64,000 nt of DNA from Rhodospirillales bacterium (GCA_020356105.1 CP070634.1:3611353-3675352); one strand, 5' to 3'. Shown: positions 3,590-59,058, counted from the stretch's first letter. Numbers and translations: made by a program. Notes: generated from the letters alone by a model not told the origin.

Positions 3590-4327
3590 CTATTCGCCCC
3601 TAGCCTCGAGCTTCGCGGCCCACGACGCGAGGTGGCGCTTCTCGCGGGCGCTGTCGACCTGGTTGCGGGTCGGGCTGAAGAACAGCCCCGGCGCATGCAG
3701 CAGCTTCGAGAAGGGGAACACCGTCATCAGCACGATGACCAGGCCGAGATGCACCGCCAGGACCGGATCGGTCGGCATCGGCTGCCAGTCGAACCGCATC
3801 AGCCCGATAATGAATTGCTTGAGCGCAACGATATCGGTTCGCGCAACGTAGCGCATGACGAGGCCGCTCGCCGTGATGCCGAGCAGCAAGGCCAGCATCA
3901 GATGGTCCGACGGTCCGCTGATATACCGGATTCTCTCGACGAGGACTCGCCGCAACCACAGCGCGCCGAGCCCCGCCAGCATGGCGAAGCCGGCATAGGT
4001 GCCGAAGGGCTGCACCAGGACGACCCAGCTCCAGACCGGCTCGGTAAAGTAACGCAGATGGCGCAGCATCGCGAGCAGCAGCGCGGCATGGAACATCCAG
4101 CCGAACAGCCAGATCCATTTGTTCGATTTGAACAGACTCTCGAACAGCACGACCTCGCGGACAAGCCGCATGGCGACGCCGCCTCTGGTCAGCGGCGCCG
4201 GCATGGTGGGGATCTTCAGGGGCGCCGGCGTGCGCCAGTACTGGACGATTTTGCGCAGCAACCCATAGATCAGCCACGCGGTTGCCGCATAGAAACCGAC
4301 AGTGAAGATCGCGGTCAGCACGGCCAT
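3590..4327 (-). CDS. dsrM: DsrM, NarI/HdrE-like membrane heme-b subunit
   Basis: 245-aa polytopic hydrophobic protein (several predicted helices with conserved His). It sits between dsrC and dsrK. Confidence 0.8.
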   Translation of the reverse strand: MAVLTAIFTVGFYAATAWLIYGLLRKIVQYWRTPAPLKIPTMPAPLTRGGVAMRLVREVVLFESLFKSNKWIWLFGWMFHAALLLAMLRHLRYFTEPVWSWVVLVQPFGTYAGFAMLAGLGALWLRRVLVERIRYISGPSDHLMLALLLGITASGLVMRYVARTDIVALKQFIIGLMRFDWQPMPTDPVLAVHLGLVIVLMTVFPFSKLLHAPGLFFSPTRNQVDSAREKRHLASWAAKLEARGE

Positions 4328-4390
4328 GATCCCCCATTGCCCCGGCCAGTTACGGCCGACCGGGGCGCTTCAGTTCATCAGTCCAGCGCG

Positions 4391-4723
4391 TCAGATGCAG
4401 CCGGTCGGCTTCGGCAGTCCGGCAATCTTGCAGGCCTGCTTGGCCGGGCCGTATGGGAACAGCTCATAGAGATACTTGCTGTTGCCCTTCTCCGGGCCCA
4501 TCGTCTTCTTGACGGCCTTCGTCAGGACGCGAATGGCGGGCGCGATCTGATACTCCTCGTAGTACTCGCGCAGGAAGTTGACGACCTCCCAGTGGTCGTC
4601 GGTCATATCGATATTCTCGTCCTCGGCGATCAGTTCCGCGAGCTCGCGGGACCACTGGCTGATATCCTTGATATAGCCTTCCTCGTCCGCCTCGAATGTC
4701 TGGCCGTTCAACTGGTAAGCCAT
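4391..4723 (-). CDS. dsrC: DsrC, sulfur-carrier/substrate protein of DsrAB
   Basis: 110 aa of the DsrC/TusE family. The diagnostic flexible C-terminus ...AKQACKIAGLPKPTGCI carries both conserved cysteines. Confidence 0.9.
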   Translation of the reverse strand: MAYQLNGQTFEADEEGYIKDISQWSRELAELIAEDENIDMTDDHWEVVNFLREYYEEYQIAPAIRVLTKAVKKTMGPEKGNSKYLYELFPYGPAKQACKIAGLPKPTGCI

Positions 4724-4783
4724 TTCTTGATTTTCCTCCTTGGTGATCTGTGTCGTGTCGTCTTTGGGTATCGTGTGCTTAGC

Positions 4784-5086
4784 TTAGAGCCACGCCTGTT
4801 GCGCCTCGTGTTCGGCCACGAGGTCGACGAATCCGCCGTAGTCGACGACCTCTATGCCATCGATCAGCGGAGCTTCGCTCAAGCCCCGGGCCGCCACGTC
4901 GGGCCCCAGGACGTAAAACTTGAAATCGTTCATGCGGGCGGCCACCGCGTCGGCGGCGCGGGTGCCGCGCAGCGCGCCGTAGACGCCGTCCTCGATCAGC
5001 AGAATCGCACTGCCGGCCTTGGCCAGGCGCATGCAGCTCTCCAGCGTATTTCTCTCGAGCGGAGATTTGTTCACCGTGTGCAGCAT
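4784..5086 (-). CDS. dsrH: DsrH (TusB-like) sulfur relay subunit
   Basis: 100-aa small protein of DsrH/TusB size and style (MLHTVNKSP...LLIEDGVY). It lies after dsrF and before dsrC. Confidence 0.8.
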   Translation of the reverse strand: MLHTVNKSPLERNTLESCMRLAKAGSAILLIEDGVYGALRGTRAADAVAARMNDFKFYVLGPDVAARGLSEAPLIDGIEVVDYGGFVDLVAEHEAQQAWL

Positions 5087-8316: not shown

Positions 8317-8609
8317 GGACTTTCCTCCAAAATTCCCTCTTCATTTACCCGTTTGCCGCCACGGGCCCGAAACTCTCTACTACTTTCGAGCAAAGCATTC
8401 CAGCATCCGAACGACCAATCTGGAATTCCCCACTCTTATATGCGAAACTTATCATATTCGAGAACGCGTACCTGAATCCAGCAGAATTGTTGTCTGGAGA
8501 TTTGCACGGCCCAATTTTCTGAATCGACGGCCAAAAAAGGTGTTGTGGTCCGGACCATACCCGGCCTGGATGCGTCACTGCAACCGTCCTCAGAATTCGG
8601 TTTGGAAAC
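8317..8609. promoter_or_regulatory. Divergent promoter region between dsrA and the TauD-like/cysG unit
   Basis: 293-nt non-coding spacer between divergent starts, visibly less GC-rich than the flanks (e.g. ctcttatatgcgaaacttatcatattcgag). No specific operator recognised. Confidence 0.4.
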
Positions 8610-44584: not shown

Positions 44585-45523
44585 TCAGGCCGGCGCCGTC
44601 ACCCGGAAATAGGTGTCGGCGATGCAGTCGTGGAGTTCGCCCATCATGATCTGCAAATCGTCGATGAACCGGTTGAGATTGCGCTGCTCCAGCGTCTCGA
44701 GATCCGCGTCGGATACGGCCCGGCGCAAGCGCCGGATGATGCCGATTGCCTTCTGCTTACGCGGCAGCCGCGCGAGGCAGCGTTCAATTTCGCCGAGGCA
44801 GTGGAAGATGGCGCGCGGGAAATCTTCATCCTTCAAAAGATACTCGAGCACATAGATGCGCCGGACCGACTGGTCCACATGCTGCCGGTACATCTGGTAC
44901 CCGGACAGCGATTTCAGGACACTCACCCACTGGATCGTCTCGAACGGCCGCAGCCCGCCGCCCTGGTCCGACAGGAGGTCGGCCGAGCGGACGTCGATGA
45001 TCCGGCTGGTCATGTCCGCGCGTTCCAGATTGCGACCCATGCGAAGGAAATCGAAGCCGATATCCTGGCTCATCGTGCCGGCGAGCAGCCCGGTGATGGT
45101 CTGCGCCCCGTTTATGATCGACCGGAGATACTGGTCGCGATCGGGGAGCAGCTCGCCCTTCTTGAGCTGGCGCGCGGCGAGCGCATGCAGGCCGCTGATC
45201 TGTTCCCATGCTTCGCGCGGCATGATGTCCCGCATTGTCCGCGCATTTTCCCGCGCGCTGCGCAGGCTGCCGATGATCGATGCCGAATTGCGCTCGTCGC
45301 TCACCAGGAAGGCGACGACATTCTTTTCGCTGGGCGCGCGATAGAGCTTGCGAAACATGCGCGCGCTGCCCGTAATCGCGATCAGCGGCTCCCACCCGGT
45401 GCGGGCCCGGGCCGGCAGGTCGAGCTGCAAATGGCCGTTGACGCTGACCATGCGGGCGGTGTTCTCGGCCCGTTCGATGTAGCGAGCCAGCCAGTACAGG
45501 TTTTCCGCAACACGTGAAAGCAT
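44585..45523 (-). CDS. Alpha-E domain protein (DUF403)
   Basis: True start at ATG 45523 (MLSRVAENLYWLARYIERAENTARM...), sharing one base with the upstream TAA (TAATG). FLRMGRNLERADMTSRIID is typical. The upstream part of the 662-aa track ORF overlaps the ATP-grasp gene in another frame. Confidence 0.8.
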   Translation of the reverse strand: MLSRVAENLYWLARYIERAENTARMVSVNGHLQLDLPARARTGWEPLIAITGSARMFRKLYRAPSEKNVVAFLVSDERNSASIIGSLRSARENARTMRDIMPREAWEQISGLHALAARQLKKGELLPDRDQYLRSIINGAQTITGLLAGTMSQDIGFDFLRMGRNLERADMTSRIIDVRSADLLSDQGGGLRPFETIQWVSVLKSLSGYQMYRQHVDQSVRRIYVLEYLLKDEDFPRAIFHCLGEIERCLARLPRKQKAIGIIRRLRRAVSDADLETLEQRNLNRFIDDLQIMMGELHDCIADTYFRVTAPA

Positions 45524-46983
45524 TACGCGTCCCCCGTCTCGTCCACGATCCAGGTGTCTTTGCTGCCGCCGCCCTGCGAGGAGTTGACCACGGTCGATCC
45601 CTTGACCAGCGCGACGCGGGTCAGGCCGCCGGTCGTAACCGATATCTCCCTGCCGGACAGGATGAACGGCCGCAGGTCGACATGGCGCGGCTCGGCGTGG
45701 CTGTCGACCAGGGTCGGCACTGTCGAGAGCGTCAGCATCGGTTGGGCGATATACTCGCGCGGCTTGGCCATGATCTTGCGGGCGAACGATTCGCGTTCCT
45801 TGCGGCCGGCTTGCGGGCCGATCAACATGCCATAGCCGCCAGATTCGTTGGCCGGCTTGACCACCAGCTTCTCGAGGTTGGCGAGCGCGAATTTCCTGTC
45901 GTCCGGCTCCATGCAGCGGTAGGTGGGGACATTGGGAATGATCGCGTCCTGGTCGAGATAGTAGCGGATCATTTGCGGCACATATGCATAGACCACCTTG
46001 TCGTCGGCGACCCCGGCTCCCGGGGCGTTGACGAGCGTCACGGTGCCCTTCTTCCAGGCCCGCATCAGGCCGGGCACGCCGAGCATGGACTTGGGATTGA
46101 AGGCCTCCGGGTCCAGGAACAAATCGTCGATCCGGCGGTAGATGACGTGGACACGCTCGGCACCGTGCACCGTGCGCATGAACACCCGGTCCCTGTCGTC
46201 GACGAAGAGGTCCGAGCCCTGCACCAGCTCCGCCCCCATCTGCTGGGCGAGATAGGCGTGCTCGAAATAGGCGGAATTGTATATGCCGGGCGTCAGCACG
46301 ACGACCTCGGGGCGCTTGACGGTCCGCGGCGCCACCGATATCAGCATCTCGAGCAGCTGTGAGGGGTAATCGTCGACCGGCAGGATGTTGTAGTTCTCGA
46401 ACAGCCCCGGAAACACGCGCTTCATGACCTGCCGGTTCTCGAGCATGTAGGATACGCCCGACGGCACGCGCAGATTGTCTTCCAGCACGTAGAACGTGCC
46501 GTCCTTGTCGCGCACGAGATCTGAGCCACAGATATGGGCCCAGATACCGAGCGGCGGGTTGATCCCGACACATTGCGGCCGAAAATTCCTTGATTTCGCA
46601 ATCACTTCCGCCGGAAACACCTTGTCCTTTACGATCTTCTGCTTGTGGTAGATGTCATCGATGAACAGGTTCAGCGCCCGCACGCGCTGGCGAAGGCCTT
46701 CCTCGATGCGGCTCCAATCGCTGGCGGCGATCACCCGCGGAATGATATCGAACGGCCAGGCCCGATCGATGCTGCCCCCTTCCTTCTGCGAGTAGACGGT
46801 GAAGGTGATGCCCATCGTCTGGATCGCGAGGTCGGCAGCCGCCTTGCGCTGGCGGATCGCCTCGTCGCTGAGCTTCGAGAGCCGGTTGCCCAGGGTCCTT
46901 GCCGCAGGGCGAAGACGTCCCCCCGGCGTGACCAACTCGTCGAAGACACCGGACGCCGGGTAATCCCGCCAGCGGATTGTCAT
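45523..46983 (-). CDS. Circularly permuted ATP-grasp type 2 protein (DUF404/DUF407)
   Basis: Start at ATG 46983 (MTIRWRDYPASGVFDELV...). Conserved stretches are WPFDIIPRVI, FYVLEDNLRVPSGVSYMLENR, VNAPGAGVADDKVVYAYVP, KPANESGGYGM and GGGSKDTW. Confidence 0.85.
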   Translation of the reverse strand: MTIRWRDYPASGVFDELVTPGGRLRPAARTLGNRLSKLSDEAIRQRKAAADLAIQTMGITFTVYSQKEGGSIDRAWPFDIIPRVIAASDWSRIEEGLRQRVRALNLFIDDIYHKQKIVKDKVFPAEVIAKSRNFRPQCVGINPPLGIWAHICGSDLVRDKDGTFYVLEDNLRVPSGVSYMLENRQVMKRVFPGLFENYNILPVDDYPSQLLEMLISVAPRTVKRPEVVVLTPGIYNSAYFEHAYLAQQMGAELVQGSDLFVDDRDRVFMRTVHGAERVHVIYRRIDDLFLDPEAFNPKSMLGVPGLMRAWKKGTVTLVNAPGAGVADDKVVYAYVPQMIRYYLDQDAIIPNVPTYRCMEPDDRKFALANLEKLVVKPANESGGYGMLIGPQAGRKERESFARKIMAKPREYIAQPMLTLSTVPTLVDSHAEPRHVDLRPFILSGREISVTTGGLTRVALVKGSTVVNSSQGGGSKDTWIVDETGDA

Positions 46984-47105
46984 GCCGTATTGCCTTCCCG
47001 AAAGATTGATTGCGATCGAGTCTATAGATATAGGTTTGTATTGCAATTTTCCGCAGTGCCCGCAATGACGAGATCGGGCGCGGCGGCGCGCCGGAGGGCT
47101 GGACA

Positions 47106-47870
47106 GTGACCTATTGCCTCGCCATTCAACTGGACAAGCACCTGGTTTTCGCAGCCGATTCGCGAACCAGCGCCGGCGTGGACAATGTTACCGTCTACAG
47201 CAAGATGCACAGGTTGCCGCTCGGCGAGGATCGGTTGTTCGTGATGCTGACCGCGGGCAACCTCGCGACCACGCAGGCGGTTCTGAGCCGTATCCAGCGT
47301 GACCTCGACAACCCCCACGCCGAGGAGAGCCTGCGCACGGCGGACTACCTGTTCGATGCGGCCCACTATATCGGCCGGATCAGTCGACACGTCCAGGCGG
47401 AGCATTCGGAAGCGTTTGTCGAGCACCAGGGCAATCTTGAGGCCAGCTTCATTCTGGGCGGGCAGATCCGCGGCCGGCCCCACAATATCTACCTGATCTA
47501 TCCGCAGGGCAATTGCATCACGGCCTCGCCTAAGGCGCCATTCCTGCAAATCGGCGAGACCAAATACGGCAAGCCGATTCTCGATCGCGTCATCACGCCC
47601 GAGACATCGCTCGGCGACGCGATCCGCTGCGCGTTGATGTCGATCTCCTCGACCATGCGCAGCAATATTTCCGTCGGCCCGCCCGTCGAGGTCGCCGTGT
47701 ACGAGCGCGATACCTTCGCCGTCGCGCGCCACATGATCCTCGACTACGATTCACGTCTGCTGCTGGACATGGAGGACAGCTGGAGCCAGGGGCTCAGGCG
47801 GGCCCTGTCGGAACTGCCCCGTTTCGAGTGGGAGGAAGAGTCGGGTCCGCGCGAGGTGCAGTCGCGATAA
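47106..47870 (+). CDS. Anbu (ancestral beta subunit) proteasome-type peptidase
   Basis: GTG start followed directly by Thr (M)TYCLAIQLDKHLVFAADSRTSAG. Motifs TAGNLATTQ, YLIYPQGN and QIGETKYGKPILDR match my memory of Anbu sequences. Confidence 0.8.
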   Translation: MTYCLAIQLDKHLVFAADSRTSAGVDNVTVYSKMHRLPLGEDRLFVMLTAGNLATTQAVLSRIQRDLDNPHAEESLRTADYLFDAAHYIGRISRHVQAEHSEAFVEHQGNLEASFILGGQIRGRPHNIYLIYPQGNCITASPKAPFLQIGETKYGKPILDRVITPETSLGDAIRCALMSISSTMRSNISVGPPVEVAVYERDTFAVARHMILDYDSRLLLDMEDSWSQGLRRALSELPRFEWEEESGPREVQSR

Positions 47871-48921
47871 TTTCCCTGACCAGCGCGAGCTTCTCGGCGA
47901 CCGTCGCCGAGATTGCGAACGGGTAGGCGTCGGGCAGCCCCATGCTGCGATTGAGATCGTTGAGCGCGACCGTCAATTCGTGCCAGTCGGTCAGGGATTC
48001 CTGAAGCCAGGTCGTCGGATCGGCGGGCATCCCCCCGATCGCCCGGCCGCGGACGGAAAGATTCAGATCCTCGGCGGTTTCCAGCGTATCGACCATATGC
48101 AGGTAGTGGGCCCAGGTCTCGGCCCAGTCTTCCCATGGATGGGCGGCGGCGTAGGCGCTGATATGGCGCGCCGGCCATTTCTCGGGCGGCCCGTCCCGGT
48201 AATAGCCCGCGAGCGCTTCGTCGTAATCCGTTCGTTCGTCCCCGAACAGGGTGCGGAACGGCGCCAACCACGCGGTATCACGGACCAAAAGGTCCCAGTA
48301 GTAATGCGCGATCTCGTGACGAAAATGGCCAAGCAGCGTGCGGTATCCCTCATTCAGGTTCTCGCGCATCCGCTCGCGCGCACCGGGGTCCGCCTCCTCG
48401 ATATTGATGGTGATGATCCCGTGCCGGTGCCCCGTCAGGATCCGGTGCTGGTCCCCCGCGGGATTCGAGAATTCGTCCGCCAGGGGCGCCGCATCGCGAA
48501 GAAATTCAAACGCCAGGCCCGCGTCGCCATCGACCGACTTGCCGAACACCGGGAGCCCGAGCGCGTCGAGGGTATAGACCAGCCGCCGCTTGGCGCGCTC
48601 GACGCGCAGCCAGAACCTACGGTTCTCCGGCACGCCGAGATCGGGAATCGTCCGGTTGAGGCGGCACGCATGGCAGAACGCATCATGGTCGTCGGCCGGG
48701 ATCATCCAGTTGCAGACCTGTTCCGGCTCATAATTCCGGCATTTGCGGTAGCGTCCGCCCGAACCGCCGGTCGTCGCCGGGGACCACAGATCGTCAGCCT
48801 CATGCTGCAGGGTGACGATTCGGCGATGCTCGGGCAGATATCCGACTTCGCGCCCGCAGTGAACGCAGACCGTGTTCTCGAAATAGAGGCGGTTGCCGCA
48901 ATGGCAATGAAACGTCTTCAT
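47794..48921 (-). CDS. Putative zinc metallopeptidase with N-terminal zinc-ribbon (HExxH family)
   Basis: 375 aa. The N-terminus is FHCHCGNRLYFENTVCVHCG...CHAC. The HExxH motif lies in GHFRHEIAHYYW. The downstream HPWEDWAETWAHY is typical of the 'zinc-binding metallo-peptidase' family. Its 3' end overlaps the Anbu 3' end by 77 nt. Confidence 0.75.
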   Translation of the reverse strand: MKTFHCHCGNRLYFENTVCVHCGREVGYLPEHRRIVTLQHEADDLWSPATTGGSGGRYRKCRNYEPEQVCNWMIPADDHDAFCHACRLNRTIPDLGVPENRRFWLRVERAKRRLVYTLDALGLPVFGKSVDGDAGLAFEFLRDAAPLADEFSNPAGDQHRILTGHRHGIITINIEEADPGARERMRENLNEGYRTLLGHFRHEIAHYYWDLLVRDTAWLAPFRTLFGDERTDYDEALAGYYRDGPPEKWPARHISAYAAAHPWEDWAETWAHYLHMVDTLETAEDLNLSVRGRAIGGMPADPTTWLQESLTDWHELTVALNDLNRSMGLPDAYPFAISATVAEKLALVREIIATAPRADPTLPPTRNGAVPTGPA

Positions 48922-49099
48922 CCGGCGTATTTCAATTCCAGGGCGTGATGTGCCGTTCAGGCAATACGGCAGAGCGGCACGGGCGTCAAACCTTCTTGAT
49001 CCGTCATGCGCATCTGCCGGACCAGGCTCCGCGGCGGGATGTCGCCGACGACCGCGCTTGTCCTGCGATCCTCGGAGCGAGTCAGCTGTCCGACCCGAT

Positions 49100-49256
49100 C
49101 AAATAATATAGATTTATATCAAAATATCGAGATATTATTTTCAAAATAAAAGAAAATGCTAATAAAATTATCAAATATATTTATTTTATTCTCCTTACAT
49201 AAATTCTTTCAGTGCCATACACTTCACGTTGAGAAATTTTTAATAAATGAATTATT
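49100..49256. promoter_or_regulatory. AT-rich island upstream of FecR paralog 1
   Basis: About 155 nt of mostly A/T in a GC-rich context. It contains the inverted repeat AATATC-ga-GATATT (49123-49136) and repeated TATCAAA(A)TAT motifs (49116-49127, 49169-49180). Confidence 0.5.
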
Positions 49257-49286
49257 GGGCCCTTGGTCCGGACATCGGGGGATATC

Positions 49287-50132
49287 ATGAGTCGCATTGG
49301 AAATCGCGGTGACCTCGGCCACGCTAGCTGGAAGAACGTGGCGGGCGTGCTGCTCATCAGTTGTCTTGCCGGGCTGGCGCCGGCGGTTGCCGCTGGCGGC
49401 CACTGGACGTTGGCGGCCGTCGATGGCACCGTCATGGTCTTCGCTCCCGGAGAAGACGACGCCGAGGCGAAACGGGGCTATCCGGTCGTCGTCGGCGCAA
49501 CCGTGGTTACGGGAGACGATGGTACCGCCACTCTGGTGCGACGCGGTGACAGCATCACCATCTCGCCTAACAGCGAGGTGACAATCCCGGACACGTCGGG
49601 CCTCGGCCATCTCGGTGTCGTGCAGAGCCTGGGCAAGCTGCTGTTCCGCATGGAAACGCGCGACTCCTACAATTTTGAAGTCAGAACGCCGTTTCTCGCG
49701 GCAACCGTGAAGGGCACGGTGTTCACCGTGGAAGTGGCGCAGAACCAGGCGACCGTGTCTGTCGACGAGGGGATGGTCCGCGTCGTGCCCGCGCGCGGCG
49801 GGCGCAGTGACATGGTGCGTGCCGGATACCGGGCTTCGGTGACGGCGGCCCGCTCCAACGAGGTTGCGGTCGAGAACGTATCAGGCCGTGGCGGTTCGCC
49901 CGCGACCAGCGCCGGCGGGCGCGGCAAAGGCAACGCGGGCGGCGATCGCGGTTCTTCCGGCAACCGTGGCGGCAATTCGAAGGGCGTCGGCGCGAAGGGT
50001 GGCGGTCCGAACGGCGGCGGTCCGAACGGCGGTGGTTCCAATGCTGGCGGCGCCGGTGTTGGCGGCTCGCCGGGCGACGACTCGCAGGGCGACGACTCGC
50101 AGGACGACGACGCCCAGGACGATCAGCAATAG
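49287..50132 (+). CDS. FecR-domain secreted protein, paralog 1, with Gly/Asn/Asp-rich repetitive tail
   Basis: ATG 49287 (GGGGGA upstream) with a signal/anchor (VAGVLLISCLAGLAPAVAAG). The FecR-like core is ...GDDGTATLVRRGDSITISPNSEVTI...FEVRTPFLAATVKGTVFTVEV.... Confidence 0.7.
   Translation: MSRIGNRGDLGHASWKNVAGVLLISCLAGLAPAVAAGGHWTLAAVDGTVMVFAPGEDDAEAKRGYPVVVGATVVTGDDGTATLVRRGDSITISPNSEVTIPDTSGLGHLGVVQSLGKLLFRMETRDSYNFEVRTPFLAATVKGTVFTVEVAQNQATVSVDEGMVRVVPARGGRSDMVRAGYRASVTAARSNEVAVENVSGRGGSPATSAGGRGKGNAGGDRGSSGNRGGNSKGVGAKGGGPNGGGPNGGGSNAGGAGVGGSPGDDSQGDDSQDDDAQDDQQ
50001..50117 (+). repeat. In-frame 15-nt tandem repeats in FecR paralog 1 tail
   Basis: ggcggtccgaacggc x2 exact (50001-50030) plus a degenerate third unit. 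ggcgacgactcgcag x2 exact (50073-50102) plus a degenerate unit. They encode GGPNG and GDDSQ repeats. Confidence 0.8.
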
Positions 50133-50273
50133 ACAAGGGCAAGAATGCCACATCCCGAGGGAGTGGGTTGCGGCGCGAATCTGCCGGATTCCAGCATGTG
50201 CTGCGGGCGCGATGGTGCGCCCCGGGATCCGGCGGACGCGCCGCCCGGGCATGTGAAGAAAGGCCGCCCTACG

Positions 50274-50396
50274 GATTAAAGAGTGTTAATGCATGAAGAA
50301 TCTCTAAAAAGAATTTAAAAATCGAAATAAAATCGAAATGTTTATTGTTACGAGAACATTAATATTCGCATAGACTTAAGTCGTATGAATTCTTTG
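50274..50396. promoter_or_regulatory. AT-rich island upstream of FecR paralog 2
   Basis: About 120 nt of A/T-rich sequence. It contains the direct repeat ATCGAAAT at 50321-50328 and 50332-50339 (11-nt period). Confidence 0.5.
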
Positions 50397-50438
50397 ACGG
50401 TTTGAATCCGCGCCAGGGTTCAGAGATCGGGGGACAAG

Positions 50439-51314
50439 ATGCTGTATTCTGGACATCGCAGCTACCCGCTTCATACCCGCTGCATGACATGGGCGGTTGC
50501 AGTTTTGGTTTCGGGCCTGGTGGGATGCAAATCGGTGGCCGCGGCCAGCGCCGACTGGACGATGGCGGTCGTGAACGGCGCCGCCATAGTGCTTGGCCCC
50601 GGCGGCGCGGGGCAGGTGGCAAGGCCGGGGTCTCCGATCTTGGCCGGCACGACATTGGTGACCGGCGATGATGGGATGGTGACGCTGGCGCGCCGCGGCG
50701 ACACGATCACGGTCTTTCCGAACAGCGAGATAACGATCGCGGATGAGTCGGCCGGTGAAGGGTCGGCGGTGACGCAAGGCTATGGTCGGCTGCAGTTCGA
50801 GCTGAACACCTTGGGGTCGCAGGATTTCCGGATCGAGACGCCTTATCTTGCCGCGAGCATGCAGGGGACGCTCTTCACCGTCGTGGTCTCGCGCGACGAT
50901 GCATCGTTGTCCGTCTCGGACGGCGTTGCCCGCGTCGCCACACGCAGTGGCGCGCGCGCGTTGACGGTACAGCAGGGCTGGGCCGCGGTGGCGCGGATCG
51001 AAAGCGGCGTGGTCGAACTGGCCGTGGGCCGTACGGGCGACGGTGGCGAGCTTGTCGAAGCGAGCCAGCTGGCGCCCGCCAGCGCCGCCGCCACGCAGCC
51101 CTCGGCGGCCGGGCCGAGCCGGGGCAAGGCGGCCTCCGGCCAGTCGTCAGGCGGTGGATCTTCGGGCGACAGCTCATCGCGGGACGAGGGATCGGCCGGC
51201 AAGGACAATGGCAAGGACAATGGGCGCGACAATGGTAAGGACAACGGCCGCGACAATGGGCGCGACAATGGCCGGGATAACGGCCGGGACAATGGCAAGG
51301 GACGCGATAAATAG
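50439..51314 (+). CDS. FecR-domain protein, paralog 2 (possible lipoprotein), with (DNGK/R)n tail
   Basis: ATG 50439 (GGGGGA upstream, as for paralog 1). It has a lipobox-like LVSGLVGC. The core is collinear with paralog 1 (GDDGMVTLARRGDTITVFPNSEITI...FRIETPYLAASMQGTLFTVVV). Confidence 0.7.
   Translation: MLYSGHRSYPLHTRCMTWAVAVLVSGLVGCKSVAAASADWTMAVVNGAAIVLGPGGAGQVARPGSPILAGTTLVTGDDGMVTLARRGDTITVFPNSEITIADESAGEGSAVTQGYGRLQFELNTLGSQDFRIETPYLAASMQGTLFTVVVSRDDASLSVSDGVARVATRSGARALTVQQGWAAVARIESGVVELAVGRTGDGGELVEASQLAPASAAATQPSAAGPSRGKAASGQSSGGGSSGDSSSRDEGSAGKDNGKDNGRDNGKDNGRDNGRDNGRDNGRDNGKGRDK
51204..51299 (+). repeat. In-frame 12-nt tandem repeat x8
   Basis: gacaatggcaag / gacaatgggcgc / gacaatggtaag / gacaacggccgc ... 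encode DNGK DNGR DNGK DNGR DNGR DNGR DNGR DNGK. Confidence 0.85.
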
Positions 51315-51506
51315 CGCCGTCGCCGCGACGGACCGCAGGGGTCGTGTGATGAAGACGGCGCGAGGTGAACCAGGATGTCAGGTGGCTGACCAAGAGGCGG
51401 TCGTGCAAACCGCGGATTGGAGCGCCTGAAAAAAACAACAAGGCGCGGGGCGAAAACCCGTTGCCAATCGCAGCAGGGGGGCGGCGGCGCCGTCGGTCGA
51501 TACGGT

Positions 51507-54362
51507 ATGGAGCACGGGACGAACAGACGCATGAGCGCAGATCCGACCACCACGAGAGGGTTGGGCCGCCTGCAGAGGCGTTGGGCTGTGCAGTTGGCGG
51601 CCCTCTTGCTGTCGGCGACGGTGTTCCTGATGGGCGGTTTTGATCCGCTGGAGCGTGCGCTCGTCGATCTGCGCTTCGAGCTGACCGGGCGCGATGCATC
51701 GGGCGAGCTCGTGATCGTGGCGATCGACCCCGAGAGCCTGCGGCAACTCAGCGTCTGGCCGTGGCCGAGGACGCATCATGCGGCCGTGGTCGACCGGCTG
51801 GTTGAGGCCGGTGCGGCCCGCATAGCTCTCGACATCGATTTCAGCTCGGCCTCGGACCCGGCGGCGGACGCCGCCCTTGCCGACGCCCTGGCCGGCGCAC
51901 CGGGACGCGTTATTCTGCCCGTGTTTCGCCAGAACGTGGCGCCCGCGGACGGACGGAGCGAAGTCGTCCACACGGCGCCGCTGCCATCGCTGCGGCGTCA
52001 TGCCCGTCTCGCATCGGTTAGCGCGGTCCCCGACGCCGACGGCCTCATCCGTCGCCATTCGATGAACGATTTCTGGCGTGAGCGGCTGGTGCCGACCATG
52101 CCGGGAGCGCTGACCGGCTGGACGTCCGCCTCGGCCGAGATATTCCACATCGATTACGGCATCCGTCCGGAATCGATCCCGATGGTCTCTTATGTCGACG
52201 TGATGCGGGGGCGTATCGATCCGAACCAGATCAGGGGCAAGGCGGTCATCGTCGGGGCGACCGCGGTGGAGCTGGGCGACGTGTATGCCGTGCCCCTGTA
52301 CAAGGCGCTGCCAGGGCCTGTCGTGCAGGCCCTTGCCTACGAATCGCTGGTGCAGGAGCGGACCTTGTACCGCGTTGCCGAATGGGTCGTCCTGTTCGGC
52401 GCCGCGCTTGTCGCCATCGGATTCGGGCGCCGTTTTCAGGCGTGGTCGTGGCGCCGTGGCGCGATTGTCCTTCTGGCCTTCACTGTGTCGCTGTTTGCCC
52501 TGGCCCTCGGCGCCCAGGCGGTGTTTCCCGTGCTCCTTGAACTGACGCCGTGTGCGGCTGTCGCGATCATGCTTTACGGAACCGCCCTCGTTCGTCGAAT
52601 CGACCGTCAGGAGCTCGTCCTGACCCTGCGCGGCAACCGGATGCGCCGTAACAACGCCTTGATGCGCAGCGTCGTGGAGAACAGTTCCGAAGCCATCCTG
52701 ACGATATCGGACGGCCTGATCATCGAACTCGTGAATCCGGCGGCCGCGCGCATGTTCGGCGAGGAGGCAAGCGAACTGACGGGCAGGGAGCTGGACGTGA
52801 TCCTTCCCGCCGTGAAGAATCGTGAAACTCTCGATGCCTGGCATGATAACGCCGAGCCGGGCATCGAGCTGCAGGCGATCGCGCGGGACGGCACCGGCTT
52901 CGAGATCGAGGCGATGGTCGACAAGATGTCGCTCGACGGCACCTGCCATTACATCCTCGTTGCGCGCGACATCACCGAACGCAAGGCGCAGCAGAACCTT
53001 CTCGAGTATCTGGCGCTGCATGATCCGCTGACCAGCCTGCCCAACCGCACCTTGTTGATGGACCGGCTCGACCATGCCATTGCCGCCTCGAAACGGAGCG
53101 GCAGCCAGCTCGCATTGCTGATCCTCGATCTCGACAGGTTCAAGGAGATCAATGATACGCTGGGTCATGGTGTCGGCGACTCCCTCCTGATCGCCGTCGG
53201 CCAGACACTCGGGGCCCCGCTGCGGGCATCGGATACGGTCGCGCGCCTGGGGGGGGATGAATTCGCGATCCTGCTGCCCGCGGTTTCCGGCCTCGAAGTC
53301 GCCCGCGACGTTGCGGAGCGGATTGCGGTGGCGACGAGCCAGCCGTTCCAGGTCGAGGATCTGACACTCGAAGTGGGCGTTTCGATCGGCGCCGCCCTCT
53401 ATCCCGATCACGGCGACAGCGCCGCGGAGCTGATGCGCGCGGCGGACGTTGCCATGTACGTGGCGAAGCGGGACGCCACGACCATCGCCATCTACGACGA
53501 GGACAGGGACCACAACAGCGTCCGCAACCTGTCCCTGGGCGGTGAACTGCGGCGCGCCATGGACGAGGACGAGCTCGTTCTCTTCTATCAGCCGCAGATC
53601 GAGCTAGCCGGCGGTCGACTGTCCAGCGCCGAGGTGCTGATCCGCTGGGACCATCCGCGGTACGGTCTGGTCCCACCGGTCGAGTTTATCACCCTGGCTG
53701 AGCAATCCGGGCTCATCGGTCCGTTGACCCGATGGATCCTGCGCTCCGCGCTCGCGCATCTCGGTGCCTGGCAGAGCGAGGGCTACGAGATCGGGCTGGC
53801 GGTGAATCTTTCCCCGCGCAACCTGCTCGAAGAGGATCTCGCGAGTTCGGTTGAGGAGCTTCTGGAAGTCCACTCGATCAAAGCCGACACCCTGACGCTC
53901 GAAATCACCGAAGACGCGATCATGACCGATCCCGAGCGCGCCCTAGGCGTGATCGGCAAACTCAGGGCGCGCGGCGTGCGCATCGCGATCGACGATTTCG
54001 GCACCGGCCATTCCTCGCTCGCCTATCTGACGACCCTGCCGGTGGACGAACTCAAGATCGACAAATCCTTCGTTCTGAACATGGGCGACCGCGGCACCGA
54101 TGCGCTGATCGTGCGCTCGATGATCGAACTGGCCCATGATCTGGATCTCAGCGTGGTGGCGGAGGGCATAGAGGACGAATCGGTTCTCGACTCGTTGCGC
54201 GAGCTCGATTGTGATGTCGGCCAGGGCTACCACATCGGCCGCCCGATGCGGCGCGAGGCGTTCGACCGCTGGATGCGCGCGCAGTTCGCTGCCGACACCG
54301 AGGAGGCAACGCGAGCTGCCGCTCCCGCGACGGCGCAACGCCGCACGGCGGCGCGGGGATAG
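51507..54362 (+). CDS. CHASE2-TM-PAS-GGDEF-EAL signalling protein (c-di-GMP turnover)
   Basis: Periplasmic CHASE2-like N-terminus (LVIVAIDPESLRQLSVWPWPRTHHAAVVDRL..ARIALDIDF), then TM helices and a PAS domain. The GGDEF domain is intact and has an RxxD I-site 5 aa upstream (RASDTVARLGGDEF). The EAL domain has EVLIRW, DDFGTGHSSL and KIDKSFV. Start is ATG 51507 or 51531 (the track starts at TTG 51417). Confidence 0.85.
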   Translation: MEHGTNRRMSADPTTTRGLGRLQRRWAVQLAALLLSATVFLMGGFDPLERALVDLRFELTGRDASGELVIVAIDPESLRQLSVWPWPRTHHAAVVDRLVEAGAARIALDIDFSSASDPAADAALADALAGAPGRVILPVFRQNVAPADGRSEVVHTAPLPSLRRHARLASVSAVPDADGLIRRHSMNDFWRERLVPTMPGALTGWTSASAEIFHIDYGIRPESIPMVSYVDVMRGRIDPNQIRGKAVIVGATAVELGDVYAVPLYKALPGPVVQALAYESLVQERTLYRVAEWVVLFGAALVAIGFGRRFQAWSWRRGAIVLLAFTVSLFALALGAQAVFPVLLELTPCAAVAIMLYGTALVRRIDRQELVLTLRGNRMRRNNALMRSVVENSSEAILTISDGLIIELVNPAAARMFGEEASELTGRELDVILPAVKNRETLDAWHDNAEPGIELQAIARDGTGFEIEAMVDKMSLDGTCHYILVARDITERKAQQNLLEYLALHDPLTSLPNRTLLMDRLDHAIAASKRSGSQLALLILDLDRFKEINDTLGHGVGDSLLIAVGQTLGAPLRASDTVARLGGDEFAILLPAVSGLEVARDVAERIAVATSQPFQVEDLTLEVGVSIGAALYPDHGDSAAELMRAADVAMYVAKRDATTIAIYDEDRDHNSVRNLSLGGELRRAMDEDELVLFYQPQIELAGGRLSSAEVLIRWDHPRYGLVPPVEFITLAEQSGLIGPLTRWILRSALAHLGAWQSEGYEIGLAVNLSPRNLLEEDLASSVEELLEVHSIKADTLTLEITEDAIMTDPERALGVIGKLRARGVRIAIDDFGTGHSSLAYLTTLPVDELKIDKSFVLNMGDRGTDALIVRSMIELAHDLDLSVVAEGIEDESVLDSLRELDCDVGQGYHIGRPMRREAFDRWMRAQFAADTEEATRAAAPATAQRRTAARG

Positions 54363-55131: not shown

Positions 55132-58100
55132 CTAGGAACAGCCGCTTGTCGACCCGCAGGTCACGCACTTCATGCAGGTGCCGTTGCGCACCAGCGTGAA
55201 ATTCCCGCATTCGCCGCACGCATCGCCCTCATAGCCCTTGGCCCTGGCCTCGCGCATGCGATCGATCCGATCGCCCGCCGGACCGCCGCCATCCGACGCC
55301 TCGTACTGCACCGACCCGATCTCGGATGTCGCGATCGTCGCGGTTACGCCGCCGGCCGACGCCATCGCCGCCCGGGCACTGCTGCCGCCCCGATAAACCA
55401 GGAACCGCTGCGAGCGCATGAAGCCGGTGCTTGCGACCTTTTGTATCGCGGCGATCGTCGGATCGTCCGTTTCCGGTAGATCACCCTCATCGGCGCCGTT
55501 GCCGAGCGCGTCCGGAAGCACGTCGGCTGGCTCCGCGTGGGCGAGGTCGTGCCGCGCCAAGTAGGAGATCGCCAGTTCGCGGAAGATATAGTCGAGCACC
55601 GAGGTCGACATCTTGATCGTATCGTTGCCCTCGACCATGCCGGATGGCTCGAACCGCGTGAAGGTAAAGGCCTCGACGAATTCGTCCAGCGGCACCCCGT
55701 ATTGCAGGCCGATCGATATGGCGATCGCGAAATTGTTCATCAGCGAGCGGAAGGCCGCGCCCTCCTTGTGCATGTCGATGAAGATTTCACCGAGCGTGCC
55801 GTTTTCGTATTCGCCGGTGCGCAGATAGACCTTGTGTCCGCCGACGATCGCCTTCTGCGTATACCCCTTGCGCCGGCCCGGCAGGCGGCGCCGTTCGGCG
55901 CGCCGCTCGATGATCCGCTCGACGATCTTCTCGGCCATCATCGGCGCGGCCGCCGCCGGCGCTTCGGCAGCGTCCGCCGCCAGTTCCGCCGCCTCGATAT
56001 CGTCATCGGCGAGCAGGGCCGCGGACAATGGCTGGCTTAGCTTGGAGCCGTCGCGATAGAGCGCGTTCGCCTTGAGGCCGAGGCGCCACGACAATGCATA
56101 GGCGTCCTTGCAGTCATCGATCTTGGCTGCGTGCGGCATGTTGACGGTCTTCGAGATGGCCCCCGAGATGAAAGGCTGTGCCGCCGCCATCATGCGGATA
56201 TGACTTTCGACCGACAGGAACCGCTTGCCGGACTTGCCGCACGGGTTGGCGCAGTCGAACACCGCCAGATGATCCTCGCGCAGATGCGGGGCGCCCTCCA
56301 GGGTCATCGCCCCGCAGCAATAGACGTTGGCGGCCTCGATGTCGTCGCGGCTGAAACCCAGCGCTTCGAGCATGTTGAAGCCCACGGCGTCGAGCTCGGA
56401 TTCCTTGAAGCCGAGAACCTCGGTGCAGAAGGTCTCGCCGAGGGTCCACTTGTTGAAGGCGAACGAAATATCGAAGGCGTTCGCCAGCGACGATTCCAGC
56501 GCCGAGAACTGCGCCGCCGAGAAGCCCTTTTCGCCAAGACTCTGATAGTTGACGCCCGGCGCGTCACGCAGGGTTCCGTGTCCGACCGCATAGGCCACGA
56601 TATCGGCGATCTCGGTCTCGGCATAGCCGAGCGTCCGCAGGGCCAGCGGCACGGTCCGATTGATGATGCGGAAATACCCGCCGCCGGCGAGCTTCTTGAA
56701 CTTGACCAGCGCGAAATCGGGCTCGATGCCCGTCGTGTCGCAATCCATCACCAGGCCGATCGTGCCGGTCGGCGCGATCACGGTCGCCTGCGCGTTCCGG
56801 TAGCCGTGCCGCGCGCCGCGTGCGAGGGCCCGGTCCCAGGCCGCCGTGGCCGCCGCCGCCAGATCGGGCTGCGGGCATCTTGCGCTGTCGAGGGCCACCG
56901 GCGCGATCGACAGGCCCTCATAGCCCCCCGTCATGCCGTCGGCGGCGGTCTTGTGGTTGCGTATGACCCGGAGCATGGCGTCCGCGTTGTCCGCATAGCC
57001 GGGGAACGGCCCGAGCTGCTCGGCCATCTCGGCCGAGGTCTCGTACGCGGCGGCCGTCATCAGCGCGGTGATGGCGGCGCACAGGGCGCGCGCCTCTTCG
57101 CTGTCGTAGCCCAGCCCGCTCGCCATCAGAAGGGCGCCGATATTGGCGTATCCCAGACCCAGCGTGCGATAGCGGTAGCTGCGCTCGGCGATCTCGCGGG
57201 ACGGGAATTGCGCCATCAGCACGGCGATCTCGAGCGTGATCGTCCACAGCCGCACGGCGTGCTCAAAGCCGGCGATATCGAACGCACCATCCTTGCCCCG
57301 GAAGGTCATCAGGTTGAGCGACGCCAGGTTGCACGCGGTGTCGTCGAGGAACATGTATTCGGAGCACGGGTTCGACGCGTTGATCCGGCCGGACTCCGGG
57401 CAGGTGTGCCATTCGTTGATGGTGGTGTCGAACTGGAGTCCGGGATCGGCGCAGGCCCAGGCGGCGCTCGCGATATCGTCCCACAGCTGGCGCGCCTTGA
57501 CGGTCCTGGCCACGGCGCCGTCGGTGCGCCGGATCAGGTCCCAGTCCCCATCGGCTTCGACCGCTTCGATGAAATCGTTGGTCAGCCGCACCGAGTTGTT
57601 GGAGTTCTGCCCCGAGACGGTCAGGTAGGCTTCCGAATCCCAGTCGGTATCGAAGCGCGGAAACTCGATCTCGGTAAATCCCTGTCGGGCGAACTCGATG
57701 ACCCGTTGGATGTAGGCTTCCGGCACCGTGGCGCGGCGGGCCGCGATCACCGCCTGCTTGAGGTCCGGGTTGCGGCGTGCCTCGTAGCGGTCGGCATCGT
57801 CGAGCTGCAGCGAGTCCGCGGTGTGGCAGGCGGCGATCACCTGGTTGAGATGCCAACCGCACTGCTTCGAGCCGGAGACCAGGGCGGCGACCTTCTGCTC
57901 TTCGACCGCCTTCCAGTTGATGTACTCGACGATGTCCGGATGATCGATGTCGACGGTCACCATCTTGGCCGCGCGCCGCGTGGTGCCACCGGATTTGATG
58001 GCCCCGGCGGCGCGGTCGCCGATCTTGAGGAAACTCATCAGGCCCGAGGATTTTCCGCCGCCCGACAGCGGCTCGTTCTCGCCGCGCAGGCGTGAGAAAT

Positions 58101-58800
58101 TGCTGCCGGTGCCGGAGCCGTATTTGAACAGGCGCGCCTCGCGGACCCACAGATCCATGATTCCGCCGTCGTTGACCAGGTCGTCGCTGACCGACTGGAT
58201 GAAGCAGGCATGTGGCTGCGGCCGCTCGTAGGCCGAGCTCGACGGTGTCACCGCGCCGGTCCGGTGGTCGACGAAGTAATGACCCTGGCCGGGGCCGTCG
58301 ATGCCGTAGGCCCAGTGCAGGCCGGTGTTGAACCATTGCGGCGAGTTCGGGGCGCCCATCTGGGTCGCCAGCATGTAGCGCATCTCGTCGAAATACGCGC
58401 GCGCGTCGGCGTCGCTGTCGAAATAGCCGCCCTTCCAGCCCCAGTAGGTCCAGGTCCCGGCGAGACGGTCGAAGACGGCGCGCGAATCGGTCTCGCGCGT
58501 GGTGCGCTGGTCCTCGGGCAGGTCCGCCAGCGCCGCCTCATCCGCCGTGCTGCGCCACAGCCATTGCGGGACGTCGTCTTCGGGCACCGGCCGCAATCGT
58601 GCCGGGATTCCCGCCTTGCGGAGATATTTCTGCGCCAGCACGTCGGCGGCAACCTGGCTCCAGGACGCGGGAACCTGCAGATTGTCCAGCCGGAAGACGA
58701 GCGATCCGTCGGGATTGCGGATTTCGCTCTCGGTTTCGCGGAACTCGATATCGTCGTAGGGCGATGTTCCGTCTTCGGTGAACCGGCGCCTGATACGCAT
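55132..58800 (-). CDS. nrdJ: Class II (adenosylcobalamin-dependent) ribonucleotide reductase
   Basis: 1222-aa ORF. The N-terminus is [16 protein letters not shown]...[13 protein letters not shown]. The core has NPCSEY. The C-terminal zinc-ribbon-like tail is [22 protein letters not shown]. This is the typical long alphaproteobacterial NrdJ. Confidence 0.9.
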
Positions 58801-58928
58801 GCCGTCAATTCTCCTCTGCGGGACGCGGAAGCCACGGATCCCTGTTCAAGCTGGTTTGGATAGGGACGTTCGGGGCCGGAGCAACCCTTTAACGTCCAAG
58901 TTTTCCCAATATTTGGGCGTTTCAGGCG

Positions 58929-58967
58929 ACACTAATACAAAATGTAGTAGTCGACAATATATATTGT
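58929..58967 (-). promoter_or_regulatory. Candidate NrdR boxes upstream of nrdJ
   Basis: Perfect 14-bp palindrome ACAATATATATTGT (58954-58967) fits the NrdR-box consensus (acaCwAtATaTwGtgt). A weaker box-like ACACTAATACAAAATGT lies at 58929-58945. Both sit in a lower-GC tract 130-170 nt upstream of the ATG. Confidence 0.5.
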
Positions 58968-59058
58968 GGAAAAAAATCAGTAATGCGCGAAATCTGGGAG
59001 TTTTCTTGCGGAATTGCTGCCGGCGCCGCGGCGGAGCCGCGCGATCCCGGCGCGCGCG

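Follow-up and report, generated by a model that had tools for sequence, protein, structure and literature searches.

A FecR-CHASE2 locus with a divergent second FecR gene next to a CHASE2-PAS-GGDEF-EAL gene in a Rhodospirillales bacterium

The 64,000-nt stretch of a Rhodospirillales bacterium genome analysed here (GCA_020356105.1, CP070634.1:3611353-3675352; from here: the window) carries, on its plus strand, two genes for exported FecR-domain proteins, followed by a gene for an inner-membrane CHASE2-PAS-GGDEF-EAL protein. These are gene A (49287-50132, 281 aa), its divergent paralogue gene B (50439-51314, 291 aa) and gene C (51507-54362, 951 aa counted from its ATG). An initial annotation, made from the sequence, had placed three open reading frames (ORFs) at these positions and given the same length for C, and both were confirmed. 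The evidence leans, if not strongly, towards reading the three genes as an envelope-sensing module for the control of cyclic di-GMP (c-di-GMP), with the FecR-like proteins as its input or co-sensor. This reading builds on the co-inheritance of FecR and CHASE2 genes across genomes, on the predicted export of A and B and on the apparently intact sensor and output domains of C.

Results

FecR-like genes accompany CHASE2 genes irrespective of the output domain

With the CHASE2 sensor region as the only seed, we searched 185,579 species genomes, which yielded 457 CHASE2 relatives, and scored the FecR-like ORFs around the matches with a hidden Markov model built from FecR homologues. Among the 47 CHASE2-seeded loci with sufficient flank, a FecR-like ORF was located at most 700 nt upstream and on the same strand in 40 (85%), and adjacent in any orientation in 42 (89%). 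Farther than 3 kb from the CHASE2 genes, a single FecR-like match was found in 255 kb of flanking DNA. With this low background, and with A and B alone in the window, the association exceeds what chance would give. When FecR served as the seed, the CHASE2-GGDEF-EAL gene was situated downstream in 7 of the 7 distinct places showing that neighbour. Pairwise distances between FecR cores also correlate with those between periplasmic CHASE2 domains (Mantel r=0.58, n=58; no value as large in 2000 permutations). These results support the co-inheritance of FecR and CHASE2 genes, the opposite of what the initial annotation had named beforehand as a ground for giving up its proposal; its statement that FecR genes are frequently found beside CHASE2 genes holds as well.

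By output, adjacency was observed for 18 of 21 GGDEF-EAL receptors and for 29 of 34 others, and all eight of these other receptors that were checked are PAS-histidine kinases. Since the genes are adjacent regardless of output, and adenylate cyclases can be added from published cases, the association follows the CHASE2 sensor and not the output. The co-inheritance fits a role of the FecR-like proteins with the periplasmic sensor.

A and B are predicted exported proteins with a FecR core and a repeat tail

The FecR domain (Pfam PF04773, cutoff 24 bits) was detected with 37.4 bits in A (E=3.6e-9) and with 29.5 bits in B (E=1e-6). Over 203 aa the two proteins share 41% identity (E=9e-45). Judged by this similarity they are clear paralogues, as the initial annotation had held for these collinear genes. 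Each protein starts with one hydrophobic segment (residues 16-38) followed by an AxA cleavage-type site, with predicted cleavage at AVA↓A in A and at ASA↓D in B. Both are thus predicted to carry Sec-type signal peptides, comprising ~aa 1-35 in A (49287-49391) and ~aa 1-38 in B, the initial annotation having noted a signal or lipoprotein N-terminus. Lipobox-like sequences occur as LISC at aa 23-26 of A and as LVGC at aa 27-30 of B; the cysteine is not conserved in relatives, in which an AxA↓(GG)HW or DW site downstream of it is the conserved feature.

The signal peptide is followed by a core at aa 39-200 in both proteins, which is beta-rich in A (49401-49886) and corresponds to 50553-51038 in B. 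In the AlphaFold (AF2) model of A, the core (residues ~40-200) is predicted with a predicted local distance difference test score (pLDDT) above 90, and Foldseek relates it to the anti-sigma protein BDI_1681 (4m0n, E=1e-6) and to the PupR C-terminal cell-surface signalling domain (6ovk_R, E=5e-6), with matches spanning 127-156 aligned columns. B retains 19 of 22 family-conserved positions, the changed ones being V132I, K142Q and V164A. The family of the A core is large and ordinary: 1303 representatives of 50%-identity clusters were found at E<=1e-10, nearly all of them with the core directly after a leader of 25-60 residues and with a C-terminal extension of variable length.

In A this extension is rich in G, D, S and N and predicted to be disordered (aa 201-281, 49887-50129), most of residues 203-261 having a pLDDT under 50. 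Tandem Repeats Finder detected two in-frame repeats in it, one of 15 nt in 3.9 copies (49978-50036) and one of 15 nt in 3.8 copies (50066-50122). The low-complexity tail of B contains DNG[KR] repeats, in frame with a period of 12/36 nt (51198-51296). The differing low-complexity tails pointed out initially are therefore real, although they do not set this locus apart as had been supposed: G/S/N/D-rich repeat tails are found family-wide and the repeat unit differs in every protein.

Both the Pfam FecR domain and the predicted core fold are shared with the FecR/PupR anti-sigma factors (6OVK, 4M0N). Unlike those, A and B possess no cytoplasmic anti-sigma domain recognized by Pfam, no membrane anchor other than the signal peptide and, with their disordered C-terminal tails, no STN-like subdomain, nor are they encoded next to an extracytoplasmic function (ECF) sigma factor or a TonB-dependent transducer. 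On these grounds an assignment as anti-sigma factors was rejected; A and B share a domain with that family and are not members of it. YfiR-like or solute-binding domains were likewise not found in A or B by Pfam.

In NCBIfam, the ~65 N-terminal residues of each mature core show weak similarity to the 'retention module' of LapA-type RTX adhesins (22-25 bits against a cutoff of 50), over 49434-49619 in A (residues 50-111) and 50559-50753 in B (residues 41-105). The AF2 model of A in addition resembles 5ix9, a 'cell surface anchoring domain' of an adhesin (E=0.01, target TM-score 0.73, 28% identity). FecR domains and adhesin retention modules may have a common beta-sandwich ancestry.

C has a canonical CHASE2 topology and complete GGDEF and EAL motifs

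In C, Pfam recognizes CHASE2 (PF05226, 5.5e-40), PAS, GGDEF (5.5e-46) and EAL (7.2e-74). Hydropathy, Pfam and the AF2 helices yield the topology that is canonical for CHASE2 proteins: a first transmembrane helix (aa 26-48, 51582-51650), the periplasmic CHASE2 domain (~51606-52415, with aa ~49-285 in the periplasm), three further transmembrane helices (aa 286-308, ~318-338 and ~340-362, together 52362-52592) and a cytoplasmic output part, here composed of the PAS (52659-52985), GGDEF (53013-53474) and EAL (53544-54245) domains. The AF2 model of the sensor region has a pLDDT of 90. The statement in the initial annotation that CHASE2 has no known ligand agrees with the literature searched, in which none was reported.

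The GGDEF motif (53250-53264) is preceded at a distance of five residues by an RxxD I-site (RASD-x5-GGDEF; RASDTVARLGGDEF, residues 573-586). In the EAL domain we found EVLIR at residue 709, NLSP at 767, EITE at 799, DDFGTG at 829, KIDKS at 850, EGIE at 886 and GQGY at 905, with EVL (53631-53639) in the place where EAL is usual. The catalytic motifs of both domains are thus all present, and the intact GGDEF domain with its I-site and the intact EVL-variant EAL domain described initially were recovered with all their motifs. The best solved relatives of C are the GGDEF-EAL modules 5m3c (1e-103) and MorA (4rnh, 7e-102), and the alignment of its EAL domain to both is continuous. Near the end of the GGDEF domain (residues ~652-658, 53460-53480), C has AKRDATT in the place of AK..GR in 5m3c and AKEMGK in MorA, and the basic residue that usually follows the glycine is absent.

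A and B share a conserved promoter-like module and leader

AT-rich islands are located upstream of A (49021-49286, from the GC profile and island list) and in the A/B intergenic region (50133-50438), which contains the second copy of promoter and leader. They are two of only four stretches below 45% GC in the 64 kb (150-nt windows), and the lowest GC content over 100 nt is 14% upstream of A and 25% upstream of B. The other two islands are found at 58841-59030, upstream of the gene for a class II ribonucleotide reductase (55132-58800, minus strand), and at 8371-8520, in a divergent intergenic region.

Within the islands, sigma-70-like modules can be proposed at the level of the consensus, a stricter sigma-70 scan not calling the two hexamer pairs: CTTACA (49194-49199), an 18-nt spacer and TACACT (49218-49223), ending 63 nt before the ATG, for A, and GTTACG (50347-50352), an 18-nt spacer and TAGACT (50371-50376), ending 62 nt before the ATG, for B. 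Transcription is predicted to start near 49230 and 50383, respectively. Both genes have the ribosome binding site (RBS) GGGGGA, at 49277-49282 and 50429-50434, respectively, four nt before the ATG and in the arrangement TCGGGGGA-N4-ATG, which corroborates the shared RBS of the initial annotation. The module [C/G]TTAC.-N18-TA.A.T is present not only upstream of A and B but also upstream of the first FecR gene of the related loci L001, L002, L003 and L005, in each case ending 59-63 nt before the ATG; its TA.A.T positions are invariant across the five syntenic loci and its distance to the ATG is alike. A leader of ~140 nt can be aligned across these loci, B and a FecR remnant in L003 included, with an upstream TAAAA.T.GAAATAA-like element, the spacer sequence CATTAA.ATT, the invariant T-A---T of the -10 hexamer and the RBS as its common features. 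The upstream regions of A and B also resemble each other more than shuffles of the same local composition do (z=3.3-3.9).

Given these homologous upstream regions, the duplicated unit consisted of promoter, leader and gene. The separate AT-rich promoters proposed initially hence exist as islands; since they are copies of one module, they suggest a similar rather than an alternative regulation of A and B and lend no support to the two exchangeable inputs suggested initially. A perfect direct repeat of AAAATCGAAAT, present twice at 50318-50339, is located just upstream of the promoter-like module of B, and the related sequence AATATCGAGAT is found upstream of A (49123-49133). This repeat and the TAAAA.T.GAAATAA-like element may be bound by a regulator or act as an UP element.

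The spacer between B and C (51315-51506), 192 nt long and with a GC content of 66% (0.66) as described initially, contains no promoter-like module. Its RNA structure is not significant (fold z-score -0.93), and an alignment of three loci showed no clear conserved structure. Because the spacer is GC-rich and has neither a promoter module nor a significant structure, B and C are probably co-transcribed. In the related loci L002 and L007 the FecR stop codon abuts or overlaps the CHASE2 start, which implies an operon there. No canonical plus-strand terminators were found between A, B and C, the nearest candidates being on the minus strand or devoid of a T-run. Rfam gave no match at E<=1 in the AT-rich regions or the B-C spacer and no family at gathering score, cobalamin riboswitches included, in the whole 64 kb; a riboswitch or other RNA element in these regions was rejected on account of the missing Rfam match and the lack of a significant fold in the spacer.

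FecR duplication is recurrent and B is the less conserved copy

Tandem FecR pairs upstream of CHASE2 genes were found in 11 of the 47 loci, or in 9-11 of 47 (19-23%) allowing for L027 and L083, which are doubtful as pairs as their two FecR matches barely overlap in the alignment. The pairs belong to at least four lineages, namely the clade of the window, L052, L018/L020/L034 and L049/L059/L069, and the copies of one pair are 20-57% identical to each other. In L018/L020/L034, and likewise in L049/L059/L069, the proximal copies of the different species fall into one orthologous group and the distal copies into another; two-copy states can therefore be stable. The duplication, which the initial annotation had taken to be unusual, is in this respect undescribed but common in genomes: no description of duplicated FecR partners of CHASE2 was found in the literature searched, and the locus in the window is an ordinary member of a widespread, known module. 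In the loci L018, L020 and L034, which are of the histidine-kinase type, the CHASE2 gene is followed on its own strand by two extra FecR-like ORFs, whose ends are ~4.6-5.3 kb downstream of where the CHASE2 domain starts; these loci so possess four FecR-like genes per receptor.

In a neighbour-joining tree, A of the window groups with both copies of L001, L002.up2, L003.up1, L005.up1 and L012.up1 (77% bootstrap). The cores of these A-type proteins are 52-63% identical to that of A, and the CHASE2 regions 61-68%. The second copies, i.e. B, L002.up1 and L005.up2, are instead placed on long separate branches with 29-37% mutual identity; the gene order in L005 is different. The L001 pair represents an independent duplication of an A-type gene. 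A search of 5.8 billion proteins returned A-type proteins as the nearest relatives of B, at 40-46% identity. L003 has one FecR gene and an 830-nt gap (3966-4793) before the CHASE2 gene. A 76-aa ORF, a weak FecR remnant (E=4e-4) and, at 4355, the promoter-like module GTTACC-N18-TATGTT are situated in this gap, which looks like a decayed second FecR copy.

Taken by their sequences, A belongs to the conserved lineage in this clade and B is a lineage-specific, fast-diverging duplicate of promoter, leader and gene in which the fold-defining residues have been kept. For the second copy this amounts to birth followed by rapid divergence and occasionally by death. The second copies of the clade are not supported as orthologues of one another, their branches being long and separate; long-branch effects in the neighbour-joining tree blur whether they stem from independent duplications or are a single old paralogue that evolves fast.

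Genomic setting and gene boundaries

The locus is compact, with three genes and no further accessory genes, and the window has no FecR-like ORFs other than A and B. It is flanked by a divergent Peptidase_Mx gene and a convergent RidA gene, with Anbu and the class II ribonucleotide reductase as wider neighbours. The Anbu-type cluster upstream (44585-48921) consists of genes for an alpha-E protein, a circularly permuted ATP-grasp protein and an Anbu proteasome-like peptidase (47106-47870), the names being taken from Pfam annotations of syntenic loci. The Zn-ribbon/Peptidase_Mx gene (47794-48921, minus strand) has a convergent 77-nt overlap with the 3' end of the Anbu gene. In syntenic metagenome-assembled genomes (MAGs), the Anbu-type cluster and Peptidase_Mx are likewise located upstream and RidA and the class II ribonucleotide reductase downstream, and the same setting holds FecR-FecR-CHASE2-PAS-GGDEF-EAL in L001, L002 and L005/L006. 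Outer-membrane, TonB-dependent or tetratricopeptide repeat (TPR) genes were found neither in the locus nor in its syntenic relatives. L007 (Pleomorphomonas) and L008, which are more distant relatives, carry just one FecR gene, directly abutting that for CHASE2-GGDEF-EAL, and their genomic contexts are unrelated. The module is also carried by Dongia (L039) and Bradyrhizobium denitrificans (L088).

The GC content at third codon positions (GC3) of A, B and C is 0.77-0.81, in line with neighbouring genes, with 0.79 for B; together with the conserved chromosomal position in relatives, this led us to reject a recent horizontal acquisition. A is 100% identical to a protein of a Rhodospirillales MAG (P0001), which in the public annotation is 264 aa long and 17 residues shorter, so that its start would correspond to a GTG at 49338. 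We favour the ATG at 49287 as the start of A, in keeping with the initial annotation, because of the conserved RBS/ATG alignment and the basic-x-W n-region conserved in relatives. The open frame of C reaches back to a TTG at 51417.

Discussion

Upstream-encoded periplasmic partners control transmembrane c-di-GMP enzymes in the YfiR-YfiN(TpbB) and NspS-MbaA systems, where the activity of a GGDEF or GGDEF-EAL enzyme is set by a small exported protein that binds to its periplasmic domain. The likeness to the locus described here is a functional analogy and there is no homology, and the sensor here is CHASE2. The FecR/PupR periplasmic domain, for its part, is a protein-protein signalling module. 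By this analogy, the FecR-like core of A or B would bind C at its periplasmic CHASE2 domain, be it directly or in relaying a signal of the outer envelope, and this binding would shift the balance of C between c-di-GMP synthesis and hydrolysis. B might contribute a second input specificity, might pair with A or might reflect mere drift.

The pairing of FecR and CHASE2 genes has been described earlier for Burkholderia and Pseudomonas aeruginosa (PMC5192318), for Campylobacterota (PMC9239204) and in connection with the CHASE2 cyclases of Sinorhizobium meliloti (PMC5498481). The Burkholderia 'BiofilmReg' operon, which has a counterpart in P. aeruginosa PAO1, encodes a response regulator, a LysM-FecR protein, a CHASE2 histidine kinase and a DUF4136 protein (PMC5192318). 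As in BiofilmReg, the gene for an exported FecR protein is located here directly upstream and on the same strand of that for a receptor in which one transmembrane helix, CHASE2, three transmembrane helices and PAS follow one another, in an order that is conserved across relatives. The locus described here differs in having a GGDEF-EAL output in place of the histidine kinase, in lacking the LysM domain, the response regulator and the DUF4136 gene and in carrying the FecR gene twice, each copy with a disordered repeat tail.

The Campylobacterota cluster comprises genes for a CHASE2 adenylate cyclase, a cyclic AMP (cAMP) phosphodiesterase, a FecR-domain protein of the outer membrane and a TPR protein (PMC9239204). 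There too FecR-domain and CHASE2 genes occur together, and one pathway was inferred for them; the output and the accessory genes differ, and the FecR protein is an outer-membrane one there, whereas A and B are short, probably soluble and end in a disordered tail. Another related system is that of S. meliloti, CyaD1/CyaD2/CyaK and smc02177, an alphaproteobacterial CHASE2 pathway with a FecR-domain envelope protein. It works with cAMP, whereas C is a c-di-GMP enzyme, and the locus described here has no NsrA-like gene. A null mutant of smc02177 shows the hyperinfection phenotype that the triple mutant of the CHASE2 cyclases also has (PMC5498481), which places smc02177 in the same pathway as these cyclases.

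A number of points weigh against A and B as the input of C. Binding between FecR and CHASE2 is something we propose by analogy. In S. meliloti, smc02177 is dispensable for perceiving the plant signal tested (PMC5498481), and perception requires the outer-membrane protein NsrA (PMC13001267, PMC7529298). Five of the 47 related CHASE2 loci are without an adjacent FecR gene, and no FecR-CHASE2 fusion proteins were found among 21 CHASE2 homologues. The correlated divergence of FecR cores and periplasmic CHASE2 domains could be explained by shared vertical descent alone. Finally, the CHASE2 region has no sequence relative and no fold match in the PDB, and with no solved or structurally similar CHASE2 reference no interface can be proposed.

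Of the other explanations, the one that survives best, though we regard it as unlikely, takes the FecR-like proteins as outputs or parallel envelope effectors that act on the cell surface and not on CHASE2, expressed from own promoters responsive to the messenger or a regulator. It draws on S. meliloti, where smc02177 is activated via the CHASE2 cyclases and Clr and is required for the phenotype and not for perception (PMC5498481), on the conserved AT-rich promoter module and upstream element that A and B each have for themselves, and on the resemblance to surface proteins, i.e. the match of the A model to 5ix9, which is weak, and weak NCBIfam matches to the LapA retention module and to the Leptospira FecR-domain surface proteins Lsa33, LipL45 and Lsa19. 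Every one of these NCBIfam matches is, however, far under its cut-off. The association with CHASE2 is independent of whether the receptor is a c-di-GMP enzyme, a histidine kinase or a cyclase, which is hard to reconcile with an output specific for one messenger, and the translational coupling or overlap of the genes in L002 and L007 suggests that the FecR protein is produced together with the receptor in stoichiometric amounts.

Still less probable, in our estimate, is that only the A-type copy works and that B is a redundant duplicate under relaxed selection, subject to birth-and-death and with no distinct role in sensing. The second copies do sit on long, separate branches that are not supported as mutually orthologous, B has no relative nearer than 40-46% identity, its near-invariant lysine is replaced (K142Q), and the independent duplication in L001 and the decayed remnant in L003 fit such turnover. 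Yet the ORF of B is intact and has kept its signal peptide, RBS, promoter module, normal GC3 and most of the conserved positions, and two other lineages maintain both copies as orthologous groups across species.

We consider it improbable that the FecR-like proteins sense nothing themselves and only pass on to CHASE2 a signal received from a partner in the outer membrane, in the manner of FecA-FecR/PupB-PupR or NsrA-CyaK: the A core does resemble the PupR domain crystallised with the PupB signalling domain (6ovk), and the S. meliloti CHASE2 cyclases do need NsrA, but neither the locus nor its syntenic relatives offer an outer-membrane, TonB-dependent or TPR partner gene, and A and B have disordered C-termini in place of the STN-like subdomain.

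The reading of the locus as an envelope-sensing module with the FecR-like proteins as input or co-sensor can also be widened. Short exported FecR-like proteins might be general, obligate co-receptor subunits of CHASE2 sensors with any output, and repeated lineage-specific duplication, with a second copy that diverges rapidly as B does, might be their way to gain new or alternative inputs. We put this forward tentatively, as a possibility that is rather doubtful at present; if true, obligate FecR co-receptors would help explain why CHASE2 itself has no assigned ligand.

Conclusions

The locus adds a new member, with a lineage-specific, divergent FecR duplicate beside a CHASE2-GGDEF-EAL gene, to a known, little-studied FecR-CHASE2 module and does not represent a new kind of system. 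CHASE2 is a common extracytoplasmic sensor domain, and a gene for an exported FecR-like protein is an almost constant neighbour in this CHASE2 subfamily. As this neighbour is present whatever the output, the FecR-like protein is the most obvious handle on what CHASE2 senses. A compact locus with two diverged partners of one receptor provides a natural comparison and could serve as a simple test system.

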